From NCBI GenBank assembly GCA_902384455.1, contig CABMCB010000084.1, positions 1 through 11,062 of the forward strand: a stretch of 11,062 bases of DNA. The letters are read 5' to 3'. This stretch comes from an uncultured archaeon. Lineage in GTDB: Archaea; Altiarchaeota; Altiarchaeia; IMC4; SCGC-AAA252-I15. The notes below the pieces were generated by a model that was given only the letters and a program-made list of their open reading frames with translations, was not told the DNA's origin and searched no databases. This document shows positions 3,355 to 11,062 of the stretch, one piece after another. Position 1 is the stretch's first letter, and every line of letters begins with the position of its first letter. A program made the translations under genes and the position numbers.

Positions 3355-3461
3355 GGAATTTTGTCTTATCCCTGTGTTTTTGCTGAATTTTTCTCGTAAT
3401 TTGTGGGCGCTGTTTGTTTTATTTACTATTGGTTACGAATTTATTACGGGGGTTTTGTGTG

Positions 3462-3536
3462 ATGCAGAGAGGTCTTACTGTCTCTTTTGTTTTTCTTGCG
3501 GCAGTCTTTTTTTTGATCTCCCCTTTGGTGGATGCG
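3462..3536 (+). other. Sec signal peptide of the giant protein
   Basis: Basic N-region (MQR), hydrophobic core (LTVSFVFLAAVFFLI), Pro, then a V-D-A cleavage motif. Confidence 0.8.
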
Positions 3537-6500
3537 GTTGCGTGCGAGTTCCTTGACAATAGGGTGGATTGTTGCGCTGTTGAGGCTTGTGACTGGAGGG
3601 AAGACCGCTGTGGCGACGCCTTATTCGGGTTGAGGCCTGGATGCGAGGAGGTTGTTCCGCCTACGATCGTCTCTTGCACTCTGAATGAGACGAATGTGTC
3701 TGCTGGCTCTCAGGTTGCGGTTGATGTCGTAGTCAGTCACGGAGACCTTCATGTGGCGGAAGTAACTGTGACTTTCGATGAGGTTGCTTACGGATGTTCC
3801 GACGACCAACCTCACTGGTACACAGTATTGAACACGTCAGGTAAGGAGGGTTCTTACGGTTCGGAGGCGAACGCCCGCGATGAGGAGGGTAACAGGGCCG
3901 ATTCTATCAAGTGCGATTCCCTCAATGTTTATGTTGTTCCGCCTTCGATTTTAGACTGCTTCCTGTCTCCTGATGACGTCGAGCAAGGCGAGGATGTAGT
4001 CGCCAACGCTTCCGTGAGCGCAGGCTCGTACTCCCTCTCTTCAGTCTGGTTCGAGTACGACGGAACAAACAAATCCTATGACGGAAACGGAGGCGGCCGC
4101 TTTTGGGCGTCTTTGGCGACGTCTGCGCTTGAAGGAGTCTATCCGGTATTGGCTCGCGCCAACGACACGGACGGAAACTTTGCTTTGGAGTTTCCGTGCG
4201 GAAACTTCACTGTCACGACAACGACCACCACGACTACTACCACCACTACGACGACCACTACTACGATAAGCGGGTGGCTGGGTAACACACGAATTGCGGA
4301 AACATCCGAAGTATCCCTTAACCCCGTAATCGCCATTTTAGGCGGCGTACCCCACGTTGCTTGGGAAGACGCCAACGGCAGCGCAAGCCGAATATTCTAC
4401 TCCTCCTTCACCGGCAGCTGGGCTACCGCCGTCAACCTCACTTCACTTGGAACAGCCCGCAGGCCAGCCCTAATATCCAACGGCTCGGCATTAACGTTAA
4501 TTTGGGACGACAACCGCTCAGGAACCCGCAGAGTATACGCGAAGTGGTTTACTTCCTCATGGGGCACATCAAGCCAGGCAAGTGCCGGCGCAGCGGAAAA
4601 CGCCTCCGCCTGCTTCTCATCAGACGGAACACTACACGCAGCATGGCAGACGTCAGGCAGAATAACGTCACGCGCATACGTCAACGCCAACTGGACCACC
4701 GAAGAAAACGCGTCAAATGCCGGGTCAAGACCTGTCGTAGCTTACGACCACTCAAATCGCCTCAACATAATATACGCGGGAAGCCCGCTGGCTTACAGGC
4801 GCGGCACAGTCTCAGGAGTATCATACGGATTCACAGACACGGACGTAGACGGCCTGCCTGATTCGGTGGAGCTTGGTTACGCCAACCAGTCTCACAGCGA
4901 GTACAACGACGCCGACGCAGGAGCCACAAAGACTAATTCCACTGAATACGACACCGACGGCGACCACGTGCCCGACGGGTGGGTGGACGGCTGGACTTTT
5001 CTTTCAAACGGCACGTGGGGCCTTGACCCGACACTTAAGGACGGCTTGTTTGAGAAGTGGGAGGGCGAGGATGGCGACACAGACGGCGCCGTTGATGCGG
5101 GTGAAACAGACCCAAATTACGCCGACAGCGACGGCGACGGGCTGCCTGATGGATGGGAAGCTTGGTACGGACTCAACCCGCTGATTGCGTCCGGCGTGGA
5201 CGGCGCGTCAGGCGACTTCGACGGAGATAGTGTGGTTAATTCAGTCGAATACGCGCGGGGAACAGACCCCTCCAAATCCGACACTGACGGCGACGGCATA
5301 GGAGATTCCACCGAGATTTCCTACGGCTCAAACGCCACTTTCTACGACACGGACGGAGACGGAGTTGCGGACGGAAGCGAATACGCGCCTTGGACCGACT
5401 CAAACATCGACGGAGTAATAAACATCAAAGACTCAGACAGCGACAACGACGGCCTAATCGACGGCAAAGAATTAAGTCCGACGCTCGACTCGGACGGCGA
5501 CGGAAAAGCCAACGTCGTAGACTCAGACAGCGACGGCGACAACGTCACAGACGGCAAGGAACAATCATATAACATTGACTCCGACGGCGACGGGAAAGTC
5601 AACATGCTTGATTCCGACAGCGACAACGACGGAGTAAACGACGGAAACGAAGACTTAGACCGCGACGGAACAATAGAAGCATACAGCTATGAGACATCGC
5701 CAACAACCCCGGACACAGACGGAGACGGACTCTGGGACGGGGAAAACATCACAGTAGCCGGAACGTTCCACGGAGGCGAAACATCATACGGCACACTCAA
5801 ACTCGACGCAGACACAGACAACGACGGCCTAACCGACGGAGAAGAAGCCGGCGGCTACGAGCTGCACATACAAAACTCAAGCGGATACGTAAGGACAGTC
5901 ACTGCATATTCCAGCCCGCTACTAACGGACACAGACTCAGACGGCCTCTCAGACAACATAGAACGCGACTTCTCCGACCCATCCTCATCAGACACAGACG
6001 GCGACGGATTATCCGACGCTTTGGAGGACGCAAACGCCAACGGCATAACGGACGGAACAGAATCAAGCCCCACAGACGCAGACACAGACGACGACACATT
6101 AAGCGACTACTACGAAGTCATGGTGTCGCATACCCTCCCAAACAACAAGGACACCGACGGAGACGGCCTGTGGGATTACGAGGGCAGGCGGGTCGTATTT
6201 AGGACGAACGCGTCGGACTTTGACGCATTAGGCGAGTACGAGGAAACGTGGGTTTACGGCCGAAGCTTCCTTTTGAGTTGCATTCCCTCCGCCATGAACC
6301 GCGTTGTTTACGCAACGTACAATCTCACTTTCAACAGGTCTCTTACTACGGTGGGGAGCCCGCCTCCTGGAGCGAACCAAGTGTGGTACAACAGCAGCAA
6401 CGGATTTATCACCCTTGGAACAAACATAACCCTCCAGCAGACTGTATGCTGCAACTACACGTTCTACGGCTCATCCCACCAGTACAATGAATGCCATCCG

Positions 6501-9500
6501 GGCCCGGGAAGAACATACAATTTGGACATGGCGTTCGGAGGATTTGCGCCCGTAAGCGAACTTGCCTGCTGGGTCGTCAACAACAGGTCAAGCACACAAG
6601 CCCTCACCCGGACGTCTGGTACTCCGCAGGCGGGGCAATACCACCTCTCCGAGTCAGACCGCAACTTATCATTAAGCGAAAACGTCAACGACGTTTCAGG
6701 CCGCACCCTCACTTTCAATTATACTTGCCGCCCCTACTTTGACTACGCGGATTCACGAAACGATAATTCGTGGATTGCTTTCCATTTGTCCGGCGACACG
6801 CTTTATGGGTTGGGCAGAATCGACGGGAAAACGTTCTCAGACGCGGATTTAGTGAGGCGCCAGATGACTCCTTACTCAACCACCCCCGAAGAGTACGTCC
6901 TCTACGCGATGCTGAACTCCACCACACCCTACGGCGACGTATGGCAGGCGACATACGACGTAGGCTGGAAAAGCGACGGGGTAATAGCATTGTTTGTGGG
7001 GGCCAACGGAAGCGTCTACCGCTACAATGCGACGTCAGATTCAATAGAGATTCTTTCGTCGCCCACCACAAGCATCCTGCGCGGCGTAGACTATCGGCCT
7101 AACAGCAACACCGCGTTGATTGTGGGAGACGGGGGGACGCTGTTGGTATATAATGGAACTAGCATATACTCGCGTGCGTCAGGCACAAACGACAGTCTGC
7201 GGGACGTCGCTTGGAAGCCGGACGGCTCGTACGCGTTGATTGTCGGCGGAGACGGGTTAGGTGTTGGGCGCGTCCTAATCTACTACTCAAACGGCTCAGT
7301 CTCAACCCTCAATTCCGGCGTAACCGACCTCAACGCGGGAGCATTCACATACCTGAACTCCGTAGCCTGGCACCCAAACGGCACTTACGCATTGATAGCC
7401 GGAGACTGGCGCTCAACAAACAGAAACTACACTCAACTAGACGACAGAAACCGCGCCGGAGGAATAATCCCCGCAAACTGCACAATCACATACAACCTCC
7501 CCGCGCTACTCCTCTACAACGGCACTTTCACTCAAATAGACAAGCCGGGAATACGCTGGTACACGGGAATGCCATTCGGCAGGATAGAATGCTACCCCGA
7601 GTACCGCTACCTCTGGTGGACCCTCCAAGGCATCGCATTCAAACCCTCAACATCAACCGCAGCAATCACGGGACGAGGAAAACTCTACACATACGACACA
7701 TCATACGCCTACACCGAAACAAACATGGAAGGCGTTCTAGAATACAACAGCACATTCGGCCTGTACACAAACGAAGGAACAGTCACTTTAGGGAGGATTT
7801 CATTCACCGCCGACGGTAGTTACGCCTACTTCGTGGGCGGCAATGCGACGTACCGCCACAGCCCAGGCTACGGGTGGTCTTCCTACTTCAGGGCGCCATT
7901 AGTGGGCTCAACATACATGCGGGCCGCATCCATGAACCCCACCAGCAACATAACAATAAGCTTCTTTGCGGGAGACGTATTCCTCCTATACGGCAGCGTA
8001 ACATCAGTCCTAAAACACGATACTGCCCCATTCGCAATAGACGTGCCCGGAGACGCAAACCCCGCATACGGCTACGCATCAACAAACCCCCTTGCATGGG
8101 AAGGCTCACACGCCGAAACATCCGCGATACTCCAATCAGACTACGCAACCCGCCACCAAGAAAAATACGACGAAAACCTCGCAACCGACCCCCTCAACAG
8201 CGACACAGACGGAGACTACCTACTAGACGGCGACGAAACATCAATCCTCGAATACACAGACCCAGACGCAGACGGCCTCGCAAACCCACTCGACTCAGAC
8301 AGCGACAACGACGGACTACTCGACGGAGTCGAACCCCTCTGGAACGTGGACACAGACCACGACGGACTTGTGAACGCACTCGACTCAGACAGCGACAACG
8401 ACAACAATACCGACGCAACAGAAGTCCGCGTAATATTCCGCGTAGGAAGCACAAACTACACATCAGCCGGAAACTGGCTCGGAATATACAACGCAAGCAG
8501 CAGCACACTAGACGCATACAACTACCTCAATCCCACCGCAGGAAACACCACACCCATAACCCCAATGACATACACATTCCTTGGCGTAAACACCACAATC
8601 AAAACAGCCGAAGGATACGTAATATCCAAAACCGCAGACATATACGGCGGCATAATCCACATACCACTCGCAGAAGGAGGATACGCAAAATACGGCCACG
8701 TACAAACAATACCAAACAACACCCGCACACGCATACCAGAATACTCACTAACCGGCCGCGAAACATACGACGGAAGCCTAATGATAGGCACAGACCAAGA
8801 CGCAGACGGACTCGCAGACGCCGCAGACCCCTACCCAACCAACCCCGACGCAGACAACGACAGCCTCAAAGACGGATTCGAACATAACTGGAGCATAGAC
8901 ACAGACGGCGACGGCCTCACAAACATACTCGACGTCGACAGCGACAACGACGGTTTGCCTGACGGTTGGATAGATGGCTGGTGTTATAATGCGACGCGCG
9001 AAGGATTGCACCAGCACGCAAACGGCAGCATAGACGGGTGGGGCGTATGGTGCAATAGGACTGAAGGCATTAAGCAACGTTTTGAGGGAGAAGACTTGAA
9101 CCTCGACGGGGCCACGCTAAACGAAACAGACCCCTTAAGAAACGACACGGACGCCGACGACATCCTAGACGGCGCAGAAATCGCCATATACTCCACTGAC
9201 CCACTCATAGACTCAGACAGCGACGGCGACCGCGTATCAGACGCCGACGAACTAACAGGCTACTTCTGCGCAGGCGTCCTCGAAGCCGAAGACTTCTACT
9301 TCGGAAGAAACATAGCAGGATACTCCGAAATACTCTACCTCGCAGGAGGACTAGGCGCAAGAATACCCTACGGCAGCAGCATAACACTAAGAACAGTCGT
9401 CGAAACACCCGGCTACTACAACATAACCCTCTACGGATTCAACCTAAACAACACAATACTGCTGACCATAGCAAACGAAACAAACAAAACATCATACACC

Positions 9501-11062
9501 CTATACGTCGGCCCAAACAACAGCATCATTTACATGGGCAACCTCACTGCAGGCCTCCTTAACATCACCATCTACCCGTGGGAGTCGGGGAAGACCGCTC
9601 AGTTGGACCGCGTAGTCCTGTGGAAGCTGGGGTTGAACGCGTCAAACAACGACTCTGACGGCGACGGCATACTTGACGGCGACGAACGATTCAGGCTCGT
9701 GTCGCTTTCCGGCGGGACGACCATAATTGGGACTGCGCCGCTTTCAACAGACACGGACGGAGACGGCATGGGCGACGGCGAAGAACTGGCTGCCGGCACG
9801 TCAGGTTGGACGCAGGACTCCGACGGAGACGGAGTATCGGACACGTACGACTCCCAGCCGACGGAATTTATCGACGCTGGAAACAGCGAGTGGACGGACG
9901 AATTCCAGACGAACCTATTGGAATACAACGCTGAATACGTCATTTGGTGGCTTAACGGAACATCCTACTCCACAGGATACGGAGGCACGGAAGGCAGCCT
10001 CGGAAACGAGGGAGTCAAAGACAGCGACGTAACAGAAGAAGGAATCATCTCGTCATTAAATGGCCAGTACGACGCCGCAGACAACGCCACATTCAAGAAC
10101 TCGTACGTAGTGCGCGACATAGAACGCGACCCCTCACGATACAGCCACTCCGACAGCGACTTCATATACGAGCACGAATACGACCCATACCCAAAATACC
10201 GCCTGCACTACGACTACAACGGCTGGTTCTACAACGTCACAGTCACAAACAAACAGTCAGTCAACGTCGTCGCAGGAAGAGGAATGGTCCCAACATACCC
10301 GTGGACAATCTCGGACTACAACAGGGAAACCCACTACGTCCACACAACCAACGAAATATTCATAGAACGCGGAAAACCCCAAAGCGTCATCATAGAATTC
10401 AGCATATCCACCGAAAGAGACATAACATTCCGCGACTCAGACACATACTACGCGCTCCCAGCGGTAGAATACGTTTTCTACAAAAACGGGGGGCTAAACA
10501 ACGGAACAAACAACATCCTATACGGAGGAACAGCCGTAGCATCCAAACTCGACCCTGCACCCTGGGCCCACTCATACAGAATCTCAATCAACCTGCCGGC
10601 ATCCTACGCAACCCAAGACTCAGCAATACTCTTCATGATGCCCATGTTCATCCGAAGAACAGGCAACGAATACCAAAAGGAAAACATATACCTATCAGAC
10701 TTCTACGTCGCCTCCCTCCAAACCCAAGTCCCACAACACTCCTACGCAGCAATAACCAAAACAGAAGGCAACCTCACCCTGCTCACCGGCTCAATACCCA
10801 CAAACATAACTTCATACCACACAGGCACCAACACATTCGGAGCATTCAACACATACGTATTCAACTACGCAAACGAAACAGACACGCAAGACATACCAAC
10901 CAGCCAGATAGACACAGCGCTCACATCATCAGACGCAGTAGTCATAATCGCCACAACCGATGCATTAGTCGCCCAAATACAAAACACCGTAAACTGGACC
11001 GCCGCATGGTACATAGAAACAACAGACGACGACAACCTAACAAGCCGCACATTCAAAAAGAC
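3462..11062 (+). CDS. Giant secreted multidomain glycoprotein with DxDxDG Ca-binding (TSP3-like) repeats and beta-propellers; 3'-truncated, at least 2533 aa
   Basis: Manual translation from ATG 3462 (MQRGLTVSFVFLAAVFFLISPLVDA...) meets no stop before the window end (...DDDNLTSRTFKK). The ORF track lists nothing in this frame after 3221, consistent with a run-off ORF. The previous in-frame stop is TGA at 3384 and GGGGG lies at 3448-3452. Domain content is coherent and N-x-S/T sequons are abundant. Confidence 0.95.
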   Translation, partial: MQRGLTVSFVFLAAVFFLISPLVDAVACEFLDNRVDCCAVEACDWREDRCGDALFGLRPGCEEVVPPTIVSCTLNETNVSAGSQVAVDVVVSHGDLHVAEVTVTFDEVAYGCSDDQPHWYTVLNTSGKEGSYGSEANARDEEGNRADSIKCDSLNVYVVPPSILDCFLSPDDVEQGEDVVANASVSAGSYSLSSVWFEYDGTNKSYDGNGGGRFWASLATSALEGVYPVLARANDTDGNFALEFPCGNFTVTTTTTTTTTTTTTTTTTISGWLGNTRIAETSEVSLNPVIAILGGVPHVAWEDANGSASRIFYSSFTGSWATAVNLTSLGTARRPALISNGSALTLIWDDNRSGTRRVYAKWFTSSWGTSSQASAGAAENASACFSSDGTLHAAWQTSGRITSRAYVNANWTTEENASNAGSRPVVAYDHSNRLNIIYAGSPLAYRRGTVSGVSYGFTDTDVDGLPDSVELGYANQSHSEYNDADAGATKTNSTEYDTDGDHVPDGWVDGWTFLSNGTWGLDPTLKDGLFEKWEGEDGDTDGAVDAGETDPNYADSDGDGLPDGWEAWYGLNPLIASGVDGASGDFDGDSVVNSVEYARGTDPSKSDTDGDGIGDSTEISYGSNATFYDTDGDGVADGSEYAPWTDSNIDGVINIKDSDSDNDGLIDGKELSPTLDSDGDGKANVVDSDSDGDNVTDGKEQSYNIDSDGDGKVNMLDSDSDNDGVNDGNEDLDRDGTIEAYSYETSPTTPDTDGDGLWDGENITVAGTFHGGETSYGTLKLDADTDNDGLTDGEEAGGYELHIQNSSGYVRTVTAYSSPLLTDTDSDGLSDNIERDFSDPSSSDTDGDGLSDALEDANANGITDGTESSPTDADTDDDTLSDYYEVMVSHTLPNNKDTDGDGLWDYEGRRVVFRTNASDFDALGEYEETWVYGRSFLLSCIPSAMNRVVYATYNLTFNRSLTTVGSPPPGANQVWYNSSNGFITLGTNITLQQTVCCNYTFYGSSHQYNECHPGPGRTYNLDMAFGGFAPVSELACWVVNNRSSTQALTRTSGTPQAGQYHLSESDRNLSLSENVNDVSGRTLTFNYTCRPYFDYADSRNDNSWIAFHLSGDTLYGLGRIDGKTFSDADLVRRQMTPYSTTPEEYVLYAMLNSTTPYGDVWQATYDVGWKSDGVIALFVGANGSVYRYNATSDSIEILSSPTTSILRGVDYRPNSNTALIVGDGGTLLVYNGTSIYSRASGTNDSLRDVAWKPDGSYALIVGGDGLGVGRVLIYYSNGSVSTLNSGVTDLNAGAFTYLNSVAWHPNGTYALIAGDWRSTNRNYTQLDDRNRAGGIIPANCTITYNLPALLLYNGTFTQIDKPGIRWYTGMPFGRIECYPEYRYLWWTLQGIAFKPSTSTAAITGRGKLYTYDTSYAYTETNMEGVLEYNSTFGLYTNEGTVTLGRISFTADGSYAYFVGGNATYRHSPGYGWSSYFRAPLVGSTYMRAASMNPTSNITISFFAGDVFLLYGSVTSVLKHDTAPFAIDVPGDANPAYGYASTNPLAWEGSHAETSAILQSDYATRHQEKYDENLATDPLNSDTDGDYLLDGDETSILEYTDPDADGLANPLDSDSDNDGLLDGVEPLWNVDTDHDGLVNALDSDSDNDNNTDATEVRVIFRVGSTNYTSAGNWLGIYNASSSTLDAYNYLNPTAGNTTPITPMTYTFLGVNTTIKTAEGYVISKTADIYGGIIHIPLAEGGYAKYGHVQTIPNNTRTRIPEYSLTGRETYDGSLMIGTDQDADGLADAADPYPTNPDADNDSLKDGFEHNWSIDTDGDGLTNILDVDSDNDGLPDGWIDGWCYNATREGLHQHANGSIDGWGVWCNRTEGIKQRFEGEDLNLDGATLNETDPLRNDTDADDILDGAEIAIYSTDPLIDSDSDGDRVSDADELTGYFCAGVLEAEDFYFGRNIAGYSEILYLAGGLGARIPYGSSITLRTVVETPGYYNITLYGFNLNNTILLTIANETNKTSYTLYVGPNNSIIYMGNLTAGLLNITIYPWESGKTAQLDRVVLWKLGLNASNNDSDGDGILDGDERFRLVSLSGGTTIIGTAPLSTDTDGDGMGDGEELAAGTSGWTQDSDGDGVSDTYDSQPTEFIDAGNSEWTDEFQTNLLEYNAEYVIWWLNGTSYSTGYGGTEGSLGNEGVKDSDVTEEGIISSLNGQYDAADNATFKNSYVVRDIERDPSRYSHSDSDFIYEHEYDPYPKYRLHYDYNGWFYNVTVTNKQSVNVVAGRGMVPTYPWTISDYNRETHYVHTTNEIFIERGKPQSVIIEFSISTERDITFRDSDTYYALPAVEYVFYKNGGLNNGTNNILYGGTAVASKLDPAPWAHSYRISINLPASYATQDSAILFMMPMFIRRTGNEYQKENIYLSDFYVASLQTQVPQHSYAAITKTEGNLTLLTGSIPTNITSYHTGTNTFGAFNTYVFNYANETDTQDIPTSQIDTALTSSDAVVIIATTDALVAQIQNTVNWTAAWYIETTDDDNLTSRTFKK
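3651..4214 (+). repeat. Two tandem 94-aa Ig-like beta-sandwich repeats
   Basis: 3651-3932 (VVPPTIVSC...NTSGKEGSY...ARDEEGN...CDSLNV) and 3933-4214 (VVPPSILDC...ATSALEGVY...ANDTDGN...CGNFTV). Each is 282 nt with conserved first and last Cys. Confidence 0.8.
4215..4265 (+). repeat. Poly-Thr linker (17 Thr, ACN x17)
   Basis: 17 consecutive ACN codons with mixed third positions. Confidence 0.95.
4275..4805 (+). other. Four BNR/sialidase-like propeller blades
   Basis: Roughly 45-aa repeats of W...P-x-[IL]...H[VA]AW...[IV][FY]: PHVAWED, LTLIWDD, LHAAWQT, LNIIYAG. Confidence 0.6.
4836..6182 (+). repeat. DxDxDG Ca-binding repeat tract 1 (about 18 units)
   Basis: Runs from DTDVDGLPDSVE to DTDGDGLWDYE; consensus D[TS]DGDG[LVI]xDGxE...TDPxxxD. 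Confidence 0.9.
6945..8012 (+). other. Seven-bladed WD40-like beta-propeller
   Basis: Blade starts: YDVGWKSDG, LRGVDYRPNS, LRDVAWKPDG, LNSVAWHPNG, LQGIAFKPST, LGRISFTADG, MRAASMNPTS; each is followed by an ALIVG-like strand. Confidence 0.8.
8202..9860 (+). repeat. DxDxDG repeat tracts 2-4 (about 14 units), interrupted by inserted domains
   Basis: Tracts at 8202-8423 (5 units), 8793-9251 (6 units) and 9651-9860 (3 units). Confidence 0.85.
9276..9623 (+). other. CBM6/CBM35-like jelly-roll domain
   Basis: Begins VLEAEDF, contains TPGYYNITLY and GNLTAGLLNITI, and ends QLDRVVLW. This matches the EAE...G-x-Y...L-x-x-G...[LI]D-x-[IV] pattern of galactose-binding-like folds. Confidence 0.6.

Follow-up and report, generated by a model that had tools for sequence, protein, structure and literature searches.

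How does a very long repeat protein carry large domains that do not belong to its repeat: does the repeat offer a slot for them, or does each domain bring its own junction? The question is raised by contig C84 of an uncultured archaeon, the whole of which constitutes the window analyzed here (11,062 bases, in a genome of 2.41 Mb and 103 contigs that is an estimated 91.9% complete). The gene concerned (3462 to 11060, a frame of ~7.6 kb that is open at its 3' end, where the contig stops) encodes a giant surface protein in which arrays of acidic loops of the DxDxDGxxDxxE type, as in thrombospondin type 3 (TSP3) repeats, alternate with three long non-repeat segments, designated ins1, ins2, and ins3. 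With slightly better than even confidence, we read this protein as a giant calcium-stiffened adhesin built of loop-flanked cassettes, in which the inserts are fixed modules.

The layout had been described in an earlier note on this DNA, and all of the motif strings quoted there lie at the places given, in the frame that runs from 3414 to 11060 on the + strand (the strand of every feature listed below). A repeat unit with three long segments between loops is indeed present, and each segment begins directly after the glutamate at position 12 (Glu-12) of a loop. Ins1 (666 amino acids [aa]; residues 924 to 1589; nucleotides [nt] 6183 to 8180) follows the loop DTDGDGLWDYE (residues 913 to 923, nt 6150 to 6182) and leads back into the repeat at ATDPLNSDTD, which starts at nt 8181. 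Ins2 (123 aa; residues 1671 to 1793; nt 8424 to 8792) comes after DSDNDNNTDATE, which ends at nt 8423, and returns at GTDQDADG, from nt 8787, while ins3 (133 aa; residues 1947 to 2079; nt 9252 to 9650) comes after DSDGDRVSDADE, which ends at nt 9251, and returns at GLNASNNDSD, from nt 9630. Smaller hairpins do share the place of the inserts, as the note had proposed: two of them, the linkers at residues 778 to 799 and 812 to 838 of the first array, begin directly after Glu-12, and the one quoted, GYELHIQNSSGYVRTVTAYSSP, occupies nt 5853 to 5918. The (T/N)xP linker that was thought to resume the repeat after each insert is found after ins1 only; ins3 returns as GLNASNN, with no proline, and in the case of ins2 the return reads GTD-Q-DADG, since 16 residues found at L008, the locus of a homologue described below, are missing from the window (one loop and its TNP linker).

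A regular expression for the loop finds 30 instances in the protein, whereas 1,000 shuffles of the same protein yield 0.17 on average and never more than 2, and it overlooks at least two more (at residues 1597 and 1935, found by a separate loop listing). These loops are grouped into array I (4836 to 6182; 19 loops by regular expression, with two long repeats that bear hairpins and a DNA tandem repeat of 90 bp), array II (8181 to 8423; 5 loops), array III (8793 to 9251, including a Trp/Cys-rich module at residues 1841 to 1910), and array IV (9651 to 9851; 3 loops). Linkers between loops measure 1 and 5 residues in compact, alternating stretches, 6 to 11 residues in the canonical form xxxGTDPxxx, and 20 to 27 residues in the hairpins. 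The 90-bp repeat (5421 to 5651; 2.6 copies, 71% matches) corresponds to compact loops with 1- and 5-residue linkers and suggests a fairly recent local duplication within array I. We take DxDxDGxxDxxE to be a complete 12-residue EF-hand-type site, in line with established knowledge of DxDxDG loops; by analogy, the loops would bind calcium and lend the arrays rigidity.

The only full-length homologue is P0209, a complete 2,621-aa protein of another archaeal metagenome-assembled genome, to which the open reading frame (ORF) at L008 is 99.96% identical. Alignment with the window protein shows 33% identity over 1,090 columns and 35% over 948; the two are collinear over about 2,000 residues and agree in their order of parts: arrays, ins1, array, ins2, array plus Trp/Cys-rich module, ins3, array, and C-terminal domain. 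The suggestion that the heads are interchangeable finds no support among these homologues: P0209 carries all three modules in an unchanged order, and no homologue has other cargo in a slot. Ins1 occurs in two of 61 genomes of the phylum, its own and G046, whose orthologue retains ins1 and its junctions at 46% identity. An exhaustive search with ins1 returned 452 proteins, of which only P0122 (the G046 protein) matches over the full length and P0209 over residues 4 to 376; nearly all of the others match in propeller blades only, and among 151 scanned proteins (150 ins1 matches plus the G046 ORF P0272), just 10 have at least two calcium loops. No paralogue of ins1 is present in its own genome, and a metagenome scan with the ins1 alignment recovered a single 1,385-base contig, identical to the G046 locus. 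A further protein, P0189, has the arrays, a Trp-rich module, and a shorter ins1 (without a subdomain of ~170 aa), followed by an unrelated tail. In all four homologues, ins1 is preceded by the conserved 11-residue loop DGDGLWD(Y/S)E. A search with the whole protein gave 437 matches, all of them through the TSP3 loops, with query coverage not exceeding 22% among the 120 matches listed; no orthologue was seen in the length range of that search.

The common starting point of the three modules and two hairpins, directly after Glu-12, speaks for the model advanced in the earlier note, in which a continuous TSP3 stalk has one permissive loop, the flanks reclose behind each insert, and the heads project sideways and can be exchanged. 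We consider this model unlikely. The half-repeats on either side of an insert were expected to close into one calcium site, which is not supported: given what is established for such loops, the 12-residue loop stands complete and wholly before each insert, with nothing left to reunite. We also surveyed gaps of at least 120 aa between loops in the 120 listed TSP3 proteins, and the 276 domain-sized gaps, in 89 of these proteins, have a (T/S/N)(D/N)P linker before the domain in 97 cases (head), after it, as in the window, in 35 (tail), on both sides in 13, and on neither in 131, counts that are rough and nonindependent, coming from regular expressions applied to related proteins. A looser pass over 494 gaps of at least 50 aa gave 144 head and 167 tail cases, each including the same 46 with linkers on both sides, many of the short gaps being loops overlooked by the regular expression. 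Boundary phases thus vary, and there is no single insertion phase in the TSP3 scaffold as such; the 97 gaps in which a GTDP linker precedes the domain speak against one permissive site. What does stand is a shared junction place within module families, which is kept in homologues and used by the same families in other giant proteins; it is a property of each family and not scaffold-wide.

Three further observations are in keeping with the permissive stalk. At least two module families use the slot in several proteins. Loops with tryptophan at position 8 (DGDGLWD), such as those before ins1 and the hairpins, are followed by a linker of at least 20 aa in 23 of 40 cases, against 1,225 of 4,482 for other loops (Fisher P = 1e-4, which overstates the effect in these related and nonindependent proteins). 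Finally, the N and C termini of 7-bladed propellers and of galactose-binding-like jelly-rolls are usually neighbors, and a pendant geometry is plausible, by analogy, for the propeller and the jelly-roll found here; if so, it would be because of these folds and not because of the repeat. Opposed to the model are, besides the complete loop and the varied phases, the identical cargo in P0209, the AlphaFold2 (AF2) models, in which the flanks have a predicted local distance difference test (pLDDT) score below 50, and the propeller, which is nested in another domain and not in the repeat. Domain nesting as such is real, inside ins1, and it is the repeat that does not host it.

That host domain is best introduced through ins2 (8424 to 8792), a stand-alone domain of 123 aa without a Pfam family. 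It belongs to a family defined by four ordered motifs, VVFRTNA, (N/D)Y..W[IV]A, TP[DE]GY, and Y.ANHQETYD, in domains of about 125 to 150 aa that lie inside TSP3 arrays. Ins2 aligns end to end with members in P0209, P0038, P0086, P0004, P0054, and P0048, and in every distinct protein with the VVFRTNA motif, the motif stands 2 to 4 residues after a loop-like acidic segment. Ins2 has no paralogue in its own genome; across the 61 phylum genomes, only ins2 itself and one noise match of 17 bits with stops came up, and the ESM Atlas offered no usable match.

Ins1 opens with the first and closes with the last motif of the VVFRTNA family, and its parts can be assigned in order. An N-terminal block of the VVFRTNA frame (GRRVVFRTNASDFD; 6183 to 6224) is matched at residues 926 to 946 by positions 2 to 25 of an ins2-family hidden Markov model (HMM; independent E value [i-E] of 0.1). 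There follow an extra subdomain of ~170 aa (6225 to 6740; residues ~938 to 1109), which the window shares with G046 and P0209 but not with P0189 and which has AF2 pLDDT values mostly below 50; a middle block of the frame (DYADSRNDNSWIA ... GRIDG ... TTPEEY; 6741 to 6947), which aligns with P0189 from residue 513; a 7-bladed WD40-like beta-propeller (6948 to 8030; residues ~1179 to 1539), recognized by AF2 and Foldseek; and a C-terminal block (IDVPGDANPAYGY ... DYATRHQEKYDENL; 8031 to 8180), in which HMM positions 108 to 136 match residues 1568 to 1599 (i-E of 0.24). The pLDDT of the propeller is 85 to 98 over most of model residues 320 to 460, the first blades, and lower afterwards. Foldseek aligns it to 7-bladed WD40 propellers with an E value of 2.6e-12 and target-normalized TM-scores (TMt) of 0.74 to 0.76, and the Pfam WD40 model scores 24.4 bits on ins1, under its gathering threshold of 27; as modeled, the center of ins1 is a 7-bladed WD40-like propeller fold.

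The ins2-family HMM touches both ends of ins1 in the right order, and two such HMMs match the N-terminal 85 residues of the P0189 ins1 (residues 496 to 583; 272 proteins searched, E values of 1.3e-6 and 2.2e-6); that same stretch of P0189 aligns by BLAST with the window ins1 from residue 1110 onward. These alignments favor a reading of ins1 as a VVFRTNA beta domain of roughly 130 aa into which two parts are nested, the ~170-aa subdomain after the first strand and the propeller, and ins2 would be the same domain without inserts. Within the VVFRTNA domains of P0038 (residues 2965 to 2985), P0086 (2973 to 2993), and P0189 (497 to 515), the first strand is followed by the domain's own DxDxDG-like loop (e.g., VDTDGDGKLNY). 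The ~170-aa subdomain of the window ins1 is located at that internal loop (SDFD ... FDYAD) and would be a domain inserted into a calcium-type loop.

Ins3 (9252 to 9650) is a predicted jelly-roll that resembles the carbohydrate-binding module (CBM) families 6 and 35, and the description of it as CBM-like may hold at the level of modeled fold and of language-model features. Its ESM features have a similarity of 0.94 to the CBM_6/CBM_35 clusters; its model (pLDDT of ~60) superposes on CBM35 and CBM6 chains (3zm8, 4qb1, 2wz8, 8j3x, and 2cdo) with Z scores of 8.7 to 10.2, within a flat list of jelly-rolls at Z scores of 8.5 to 10.4 that also includes PPC, GOLD, and Cry domain III. An N-terminal xEAEDy strand is typical of CBM6/35. 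In ins3 this strand, VLEAEDFY, begins 9 residues after Glu-12, and a strand of the form [IVL]EAED[FYA] lies exactly 9 residues past the last loop residue in seven distinct proteins (P0001, P0004, P0038, P0054, P0082, P0086, and P0116); two of nine distinct proteins with the xEAEDy motif have no loop before it. At the end of these modules, a hydrophobic strand leads through L(D/N)Pxxx into the next loop. They are otherwise only loosely alike, with phmmer E values from 1e-12 to above 0.1 within the nine-sequence set. Ins3 itself has no homologue among longer proteins (234 to 2,000 aa, word-indexed search), no paralogue in its own genome, and no match other than itself in the 61 genomes of the phylum.

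The constant spacing of modules that can barely be aligned otherwise bears on a second alternative, namely, that the protein is a plain string of beads, with flexible acidic linkers, in which the constant junctions only record the common descent of pieces that were duplicated or shuffled, with no structural meaning. Such a view, which we hold to be improbable, is in accord with the lack of a fixed boundary phase across TSP3 proteins in general and with the lack of confident flank packing in the AF2 models. A study of giant proteins in uncultured bacteria likewise presents TSP3 repeats as tandem-repeat scaffolds whose remaining content is variable (10.64898/2026.06.07.730766). It is harder to square with the exact distance of 9 residues from Glu-12 to xEAEDy in seven proteins and with the 11-residue DGDGLWD(Y/S)E ahead of ins1 in all four homologues. 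This spacing and this conserved loop both speak for a packing of the preceding loop against the module.

The Trp/Cys-rich module of array III (DGWIDGWCYN...GWGVWC...EGED; nt 8934 to 9143; residues 1841 to 1910) is a fourth non-repeat piece. It is the most conserved stretch between the window and P0209, sharing with L008 the long identical run DVDSDNDGLPDGW.DGWC, and it recurs without cysteines near the N terminus (residues 517 to 552) and is also found in P0189. The module is possibly a functional site stapled by disulfides.

At the gene level, the frame from 3414 to 11060 comprises 2,549 uninterrupted codons and runs off the contig at its 3' end. The ORF is listed from a TTG at 3414; its likely start is the ATG at 3462 (residue 17, MQRGL...). 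The window holds 2,549 aa of a protein of ~2,900 aa by homology, with ~350 aa missing beyond the contig end, judged against P0209. The predicted signal peptide (3462 to 3542) lies in a Kyte-Doolittle hydrophobic segment at residues 13 to 48, the only such segment in the available part of the protein. An N-terminal region (3543 to 4835) follows, with a weak Ig-like match (Pfam Big_13, 19.3 bits, under its cutoff of 27), a poly-Thr linker, and a Trp-containing beta-repeat region; residues 407 to 474 can be aligned with P0209. The linker comprises 17 residues (nt 4214 to 4266) and is a DNA tandem repeat in the window, and the G046 orthologue has in its place a Ser/Thr-rich tract of roughly 250 residues (L006, about 850 to 1600). 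At the other end, the C-terminal domain or domains (9852 to 11060; at least 403 aa after nt 9852, cut by the contig end) belong to no Pfam family; the domain, of 400 to 740 aa, is common to the window and P0209 (L008, 9965 to 12184) at 28% identity. It has no relatives among longer proteins (707 to 2,015 aa) or in a metagenome scan, and a scan of genome contigs returned the P0209 locus only. P0209 continues for ~350 residues past the end point of the window and includes there one hydrophobic segment (residues 2518 to 2539), on the basis of which the family is probably C-terminally anchored; the window protein probably has a single C-terminal membrane anchor, with its N terminus pointing away from the cell. 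Asp, Thr, Gly, and Ser each account for ~9 to 10% of its composition, and the 74 N-x-S/T sequons in the 2,549 residues (3462 to 11060), many of them within modules, fit a heavily N-glycosylated archaeal surface protein.

Upstream of the giant ORF lie a gene for an Rpp14/Pop5 RNase P subunit and ORFs that, named by eye, we take to be mevalonate-kinase-like and FtsZ-like, a gene set that points to an archaeal host. A comparison of synteny among the window, L006, and L008 showed different neighbor genes and gave no functional hint. AT skew along the contig goes from about -0.34 (1 to 2.5 kb) to +0.49 (8 to 9 kb).

A third possibility, that the locus is an assembly chimera or a decaying repeat pseudogene with no functional gene, strikes us as highly improbable. 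The window copy lacks its 3' end, and the G046 orthologue is collinear only until one loop past ins1, where it stops; the next frame continues with an SDSDGD loop and a He_PIG/cadherin-like domain ending in GWNLISIPLVI, and the same break is found in an independent metagenome contig (L006, 5560 to 6104; L009, 650 to 1193). Either the frame is truly shifted or the gene split at this break, or the protein has a naturally shorter form. Against decay or chimerism are the unbroken run of 2,549 codons in the window, the collinearity with the complete P0209 over about 2,000 residues, and the restriction of DNA-level tandem repeats to the poly-Thr tract and one 90-bp unit.

Among known systems, the nearest parallels to the backbone are the thrombospondin/COMP type 3 repeats and the Pfam family TSP3_bac (PF18884), which, like the window protein, have tandem DxDxDGxxDxxE/D acidic loops in long arrays of secreted proteins. 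TSP3_bac matches two stretches of the whole protein with 19.7 bits (E value of 7.8e-4), short of its gathering threshold of 25, and many of the loops have compact 1- and 5-residue linkers, unlike the 22-residue TSP3_bac unit. Animal type 3 repeats have Cys-containing N- and C-type units and end in one lectin-like domain, whereas the arrays of the window are free of Cys and interrupted three times by other domains. A PDB sequence search with a TSP3 array returned nothing at E values up to 0.001. The best named family match is CglD, the integrin-like gliding adhesin of Myxococcus xanthus, also a surface protein with a long DxDxDG array: the NCBIfam model (NF033765) gives a partial match of 176.7 bits, against an equivalog cutoff of 400, between residues 472 to 753 and model positions 104 to 415. 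Unlike CglD, a bacterial lipoprotein, the window protein is an archaeal signal-peptide protein with no match to a VWA domain or an EGF-like Cys-rich stalk. In the CglD preprint, the CglD array is matched to the COMP structure 3FBY.

In length and dominance by TSP3 loops, the protein also resembles the giant TSP3 scaffold proteins of uncultured bacteria and archaea, such as those in the study cited above, and its 437 TSP3-only matches are of this kind; its family differs in having a set of its own (VVFRTNA domain, nested propeller, xEAEDy jelly-roll, and unnamed C-terminal domain) in three or four lineages only. Ins3 is like CBM6 and CBM35 in ESM features and modeled fold and differs in having no Pfam match and a flat structural ranking at low model confidence. 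In integrins, an I-domain is a globular head set in a loop of another extracellular domain, much as the propeller and the ~170-aa subdomain would sit in the ins1 VVFRTNA frame; the two cases are unrelated in sequence and fold, and the ins1 host domain is unnamed. Our literature searches gave no evidence for a link between the window protein and altiarchaeal hami or S-layers, nor did they bring up any publication on TSP3 repeats of bacteria or archaea with domains set into them. In the databases searched, there is no annotation for the window family, for the VVFRTNA domain, or for the xEAEDy module with its flanking loops.

According to the reading that we favor, this is a secreted cell-surface protein of an uncultured archaeon, probably anchored by its C terminus, with a backbone of self-contained 12-residue EF-hand-type loops of the bacterial TSP3 type that would, when bound to Ca2+, stiffen and space the chain. 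Ins1, ins2, and ins3 would be fixed binding modules and not exchangeable cargo. The junction, with the module starting 0 to 9 residues after Glu-12 and the return made through an L(D/N)P-type linker, would be a property of each module family, and each family would move as a loop-flanked cassette, shuffled with the same junction among otherwise unrelated giant TSP3 proteins. The function is likely to be calcium-dependent attachment to glycans or other surfaces, judging from the types of module; profile scans with Pfam and NCBIfam place no segment in an enzyme family. Our view of the protein as a glycosylated, calcium-stiffened adhesin draws on its signal peptide and acidic loops, on the anchor seen in P0209, and on the kinds of module, none from an enzyme family.

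Several results weigh against this interpretation. The family is tiny (the window, G046, P0209, and in part P0189), the case for fixed cargo comes from one full-length homologue, and the survey of junctions has the roughness already stated. Neither the window ins3 nor that of L008 matches Pfam CBM_6 or CBM_35 at E values up to 1, nor does any of six proteins with xEAEDy modules at E values up to 0.5; within the nine-sequence set, the window ins3 is linked weakly to the other xEAEDy modules (phmmer E values of 0.002 to 0.2), and an HMM search linking them gave nothing below an E value of 0.27. The relation between ins1 and ins2 in the window is transitive, through P0189, the direct loop-free HMM matches being the weak ones with i-E values of 0.1 and 0.24. 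Once the flanking loops were removed, a two-sequence HMM gave no significant direct match between ins2 and ins1 (E values of 1.1 for P0189 and 3.8 for P0122), and an apparent match in an earlier comparison proved to be inflated by loops. In the AF2 model of residues 860 to 1660 (42-row alignment; mean pLDDT of 59.6), confidence is confined to the propeller, with scores below 50 for the flanks and for the N-terminal part of ins1, and the model of residues 1616 to 2146 (2-row alignment) has a mean pLDDT of 32.7. The anchor of the window copy would lie past the contig end, its existence being deduced from P0209.

A bolder extension, possible in our view but doubtful, is that the VVFRTNA domain, the xEAEDy jelly-roll, and the hairpin LWD repeats have coevolved with their flanking loops into cassettes that could be spliced into any TSP3 wire and leave it unbroken, the modules hanging off it and being presented under the control of calcium. 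The VVFRTNA domain would then be a second-order socket, open to a propeller and a further subdomain, and this charm-bracelet arrangement would be a general principle by which archaea and bacteria construct giant adhesins.

Giant proteins with TSP3 repeats occur widely in uncultured archaea and bacteria but have received almost no study, and this locus offers a compact, conserved example that combines clear domain nesting with three module families that lack annotation: the VVFRTNA domain, the xEAEDy jelly-roll between its flanking loops, and the C-terminal domain. At present, the value of the result lies in useful annotation rather than in surprise. If it is true that the cassettes couple structurally to the calcium loops, this coupling would supply an annotation rule for giant TSP3 proteins and would show how their stalks can stay stiff as binding modules are added.

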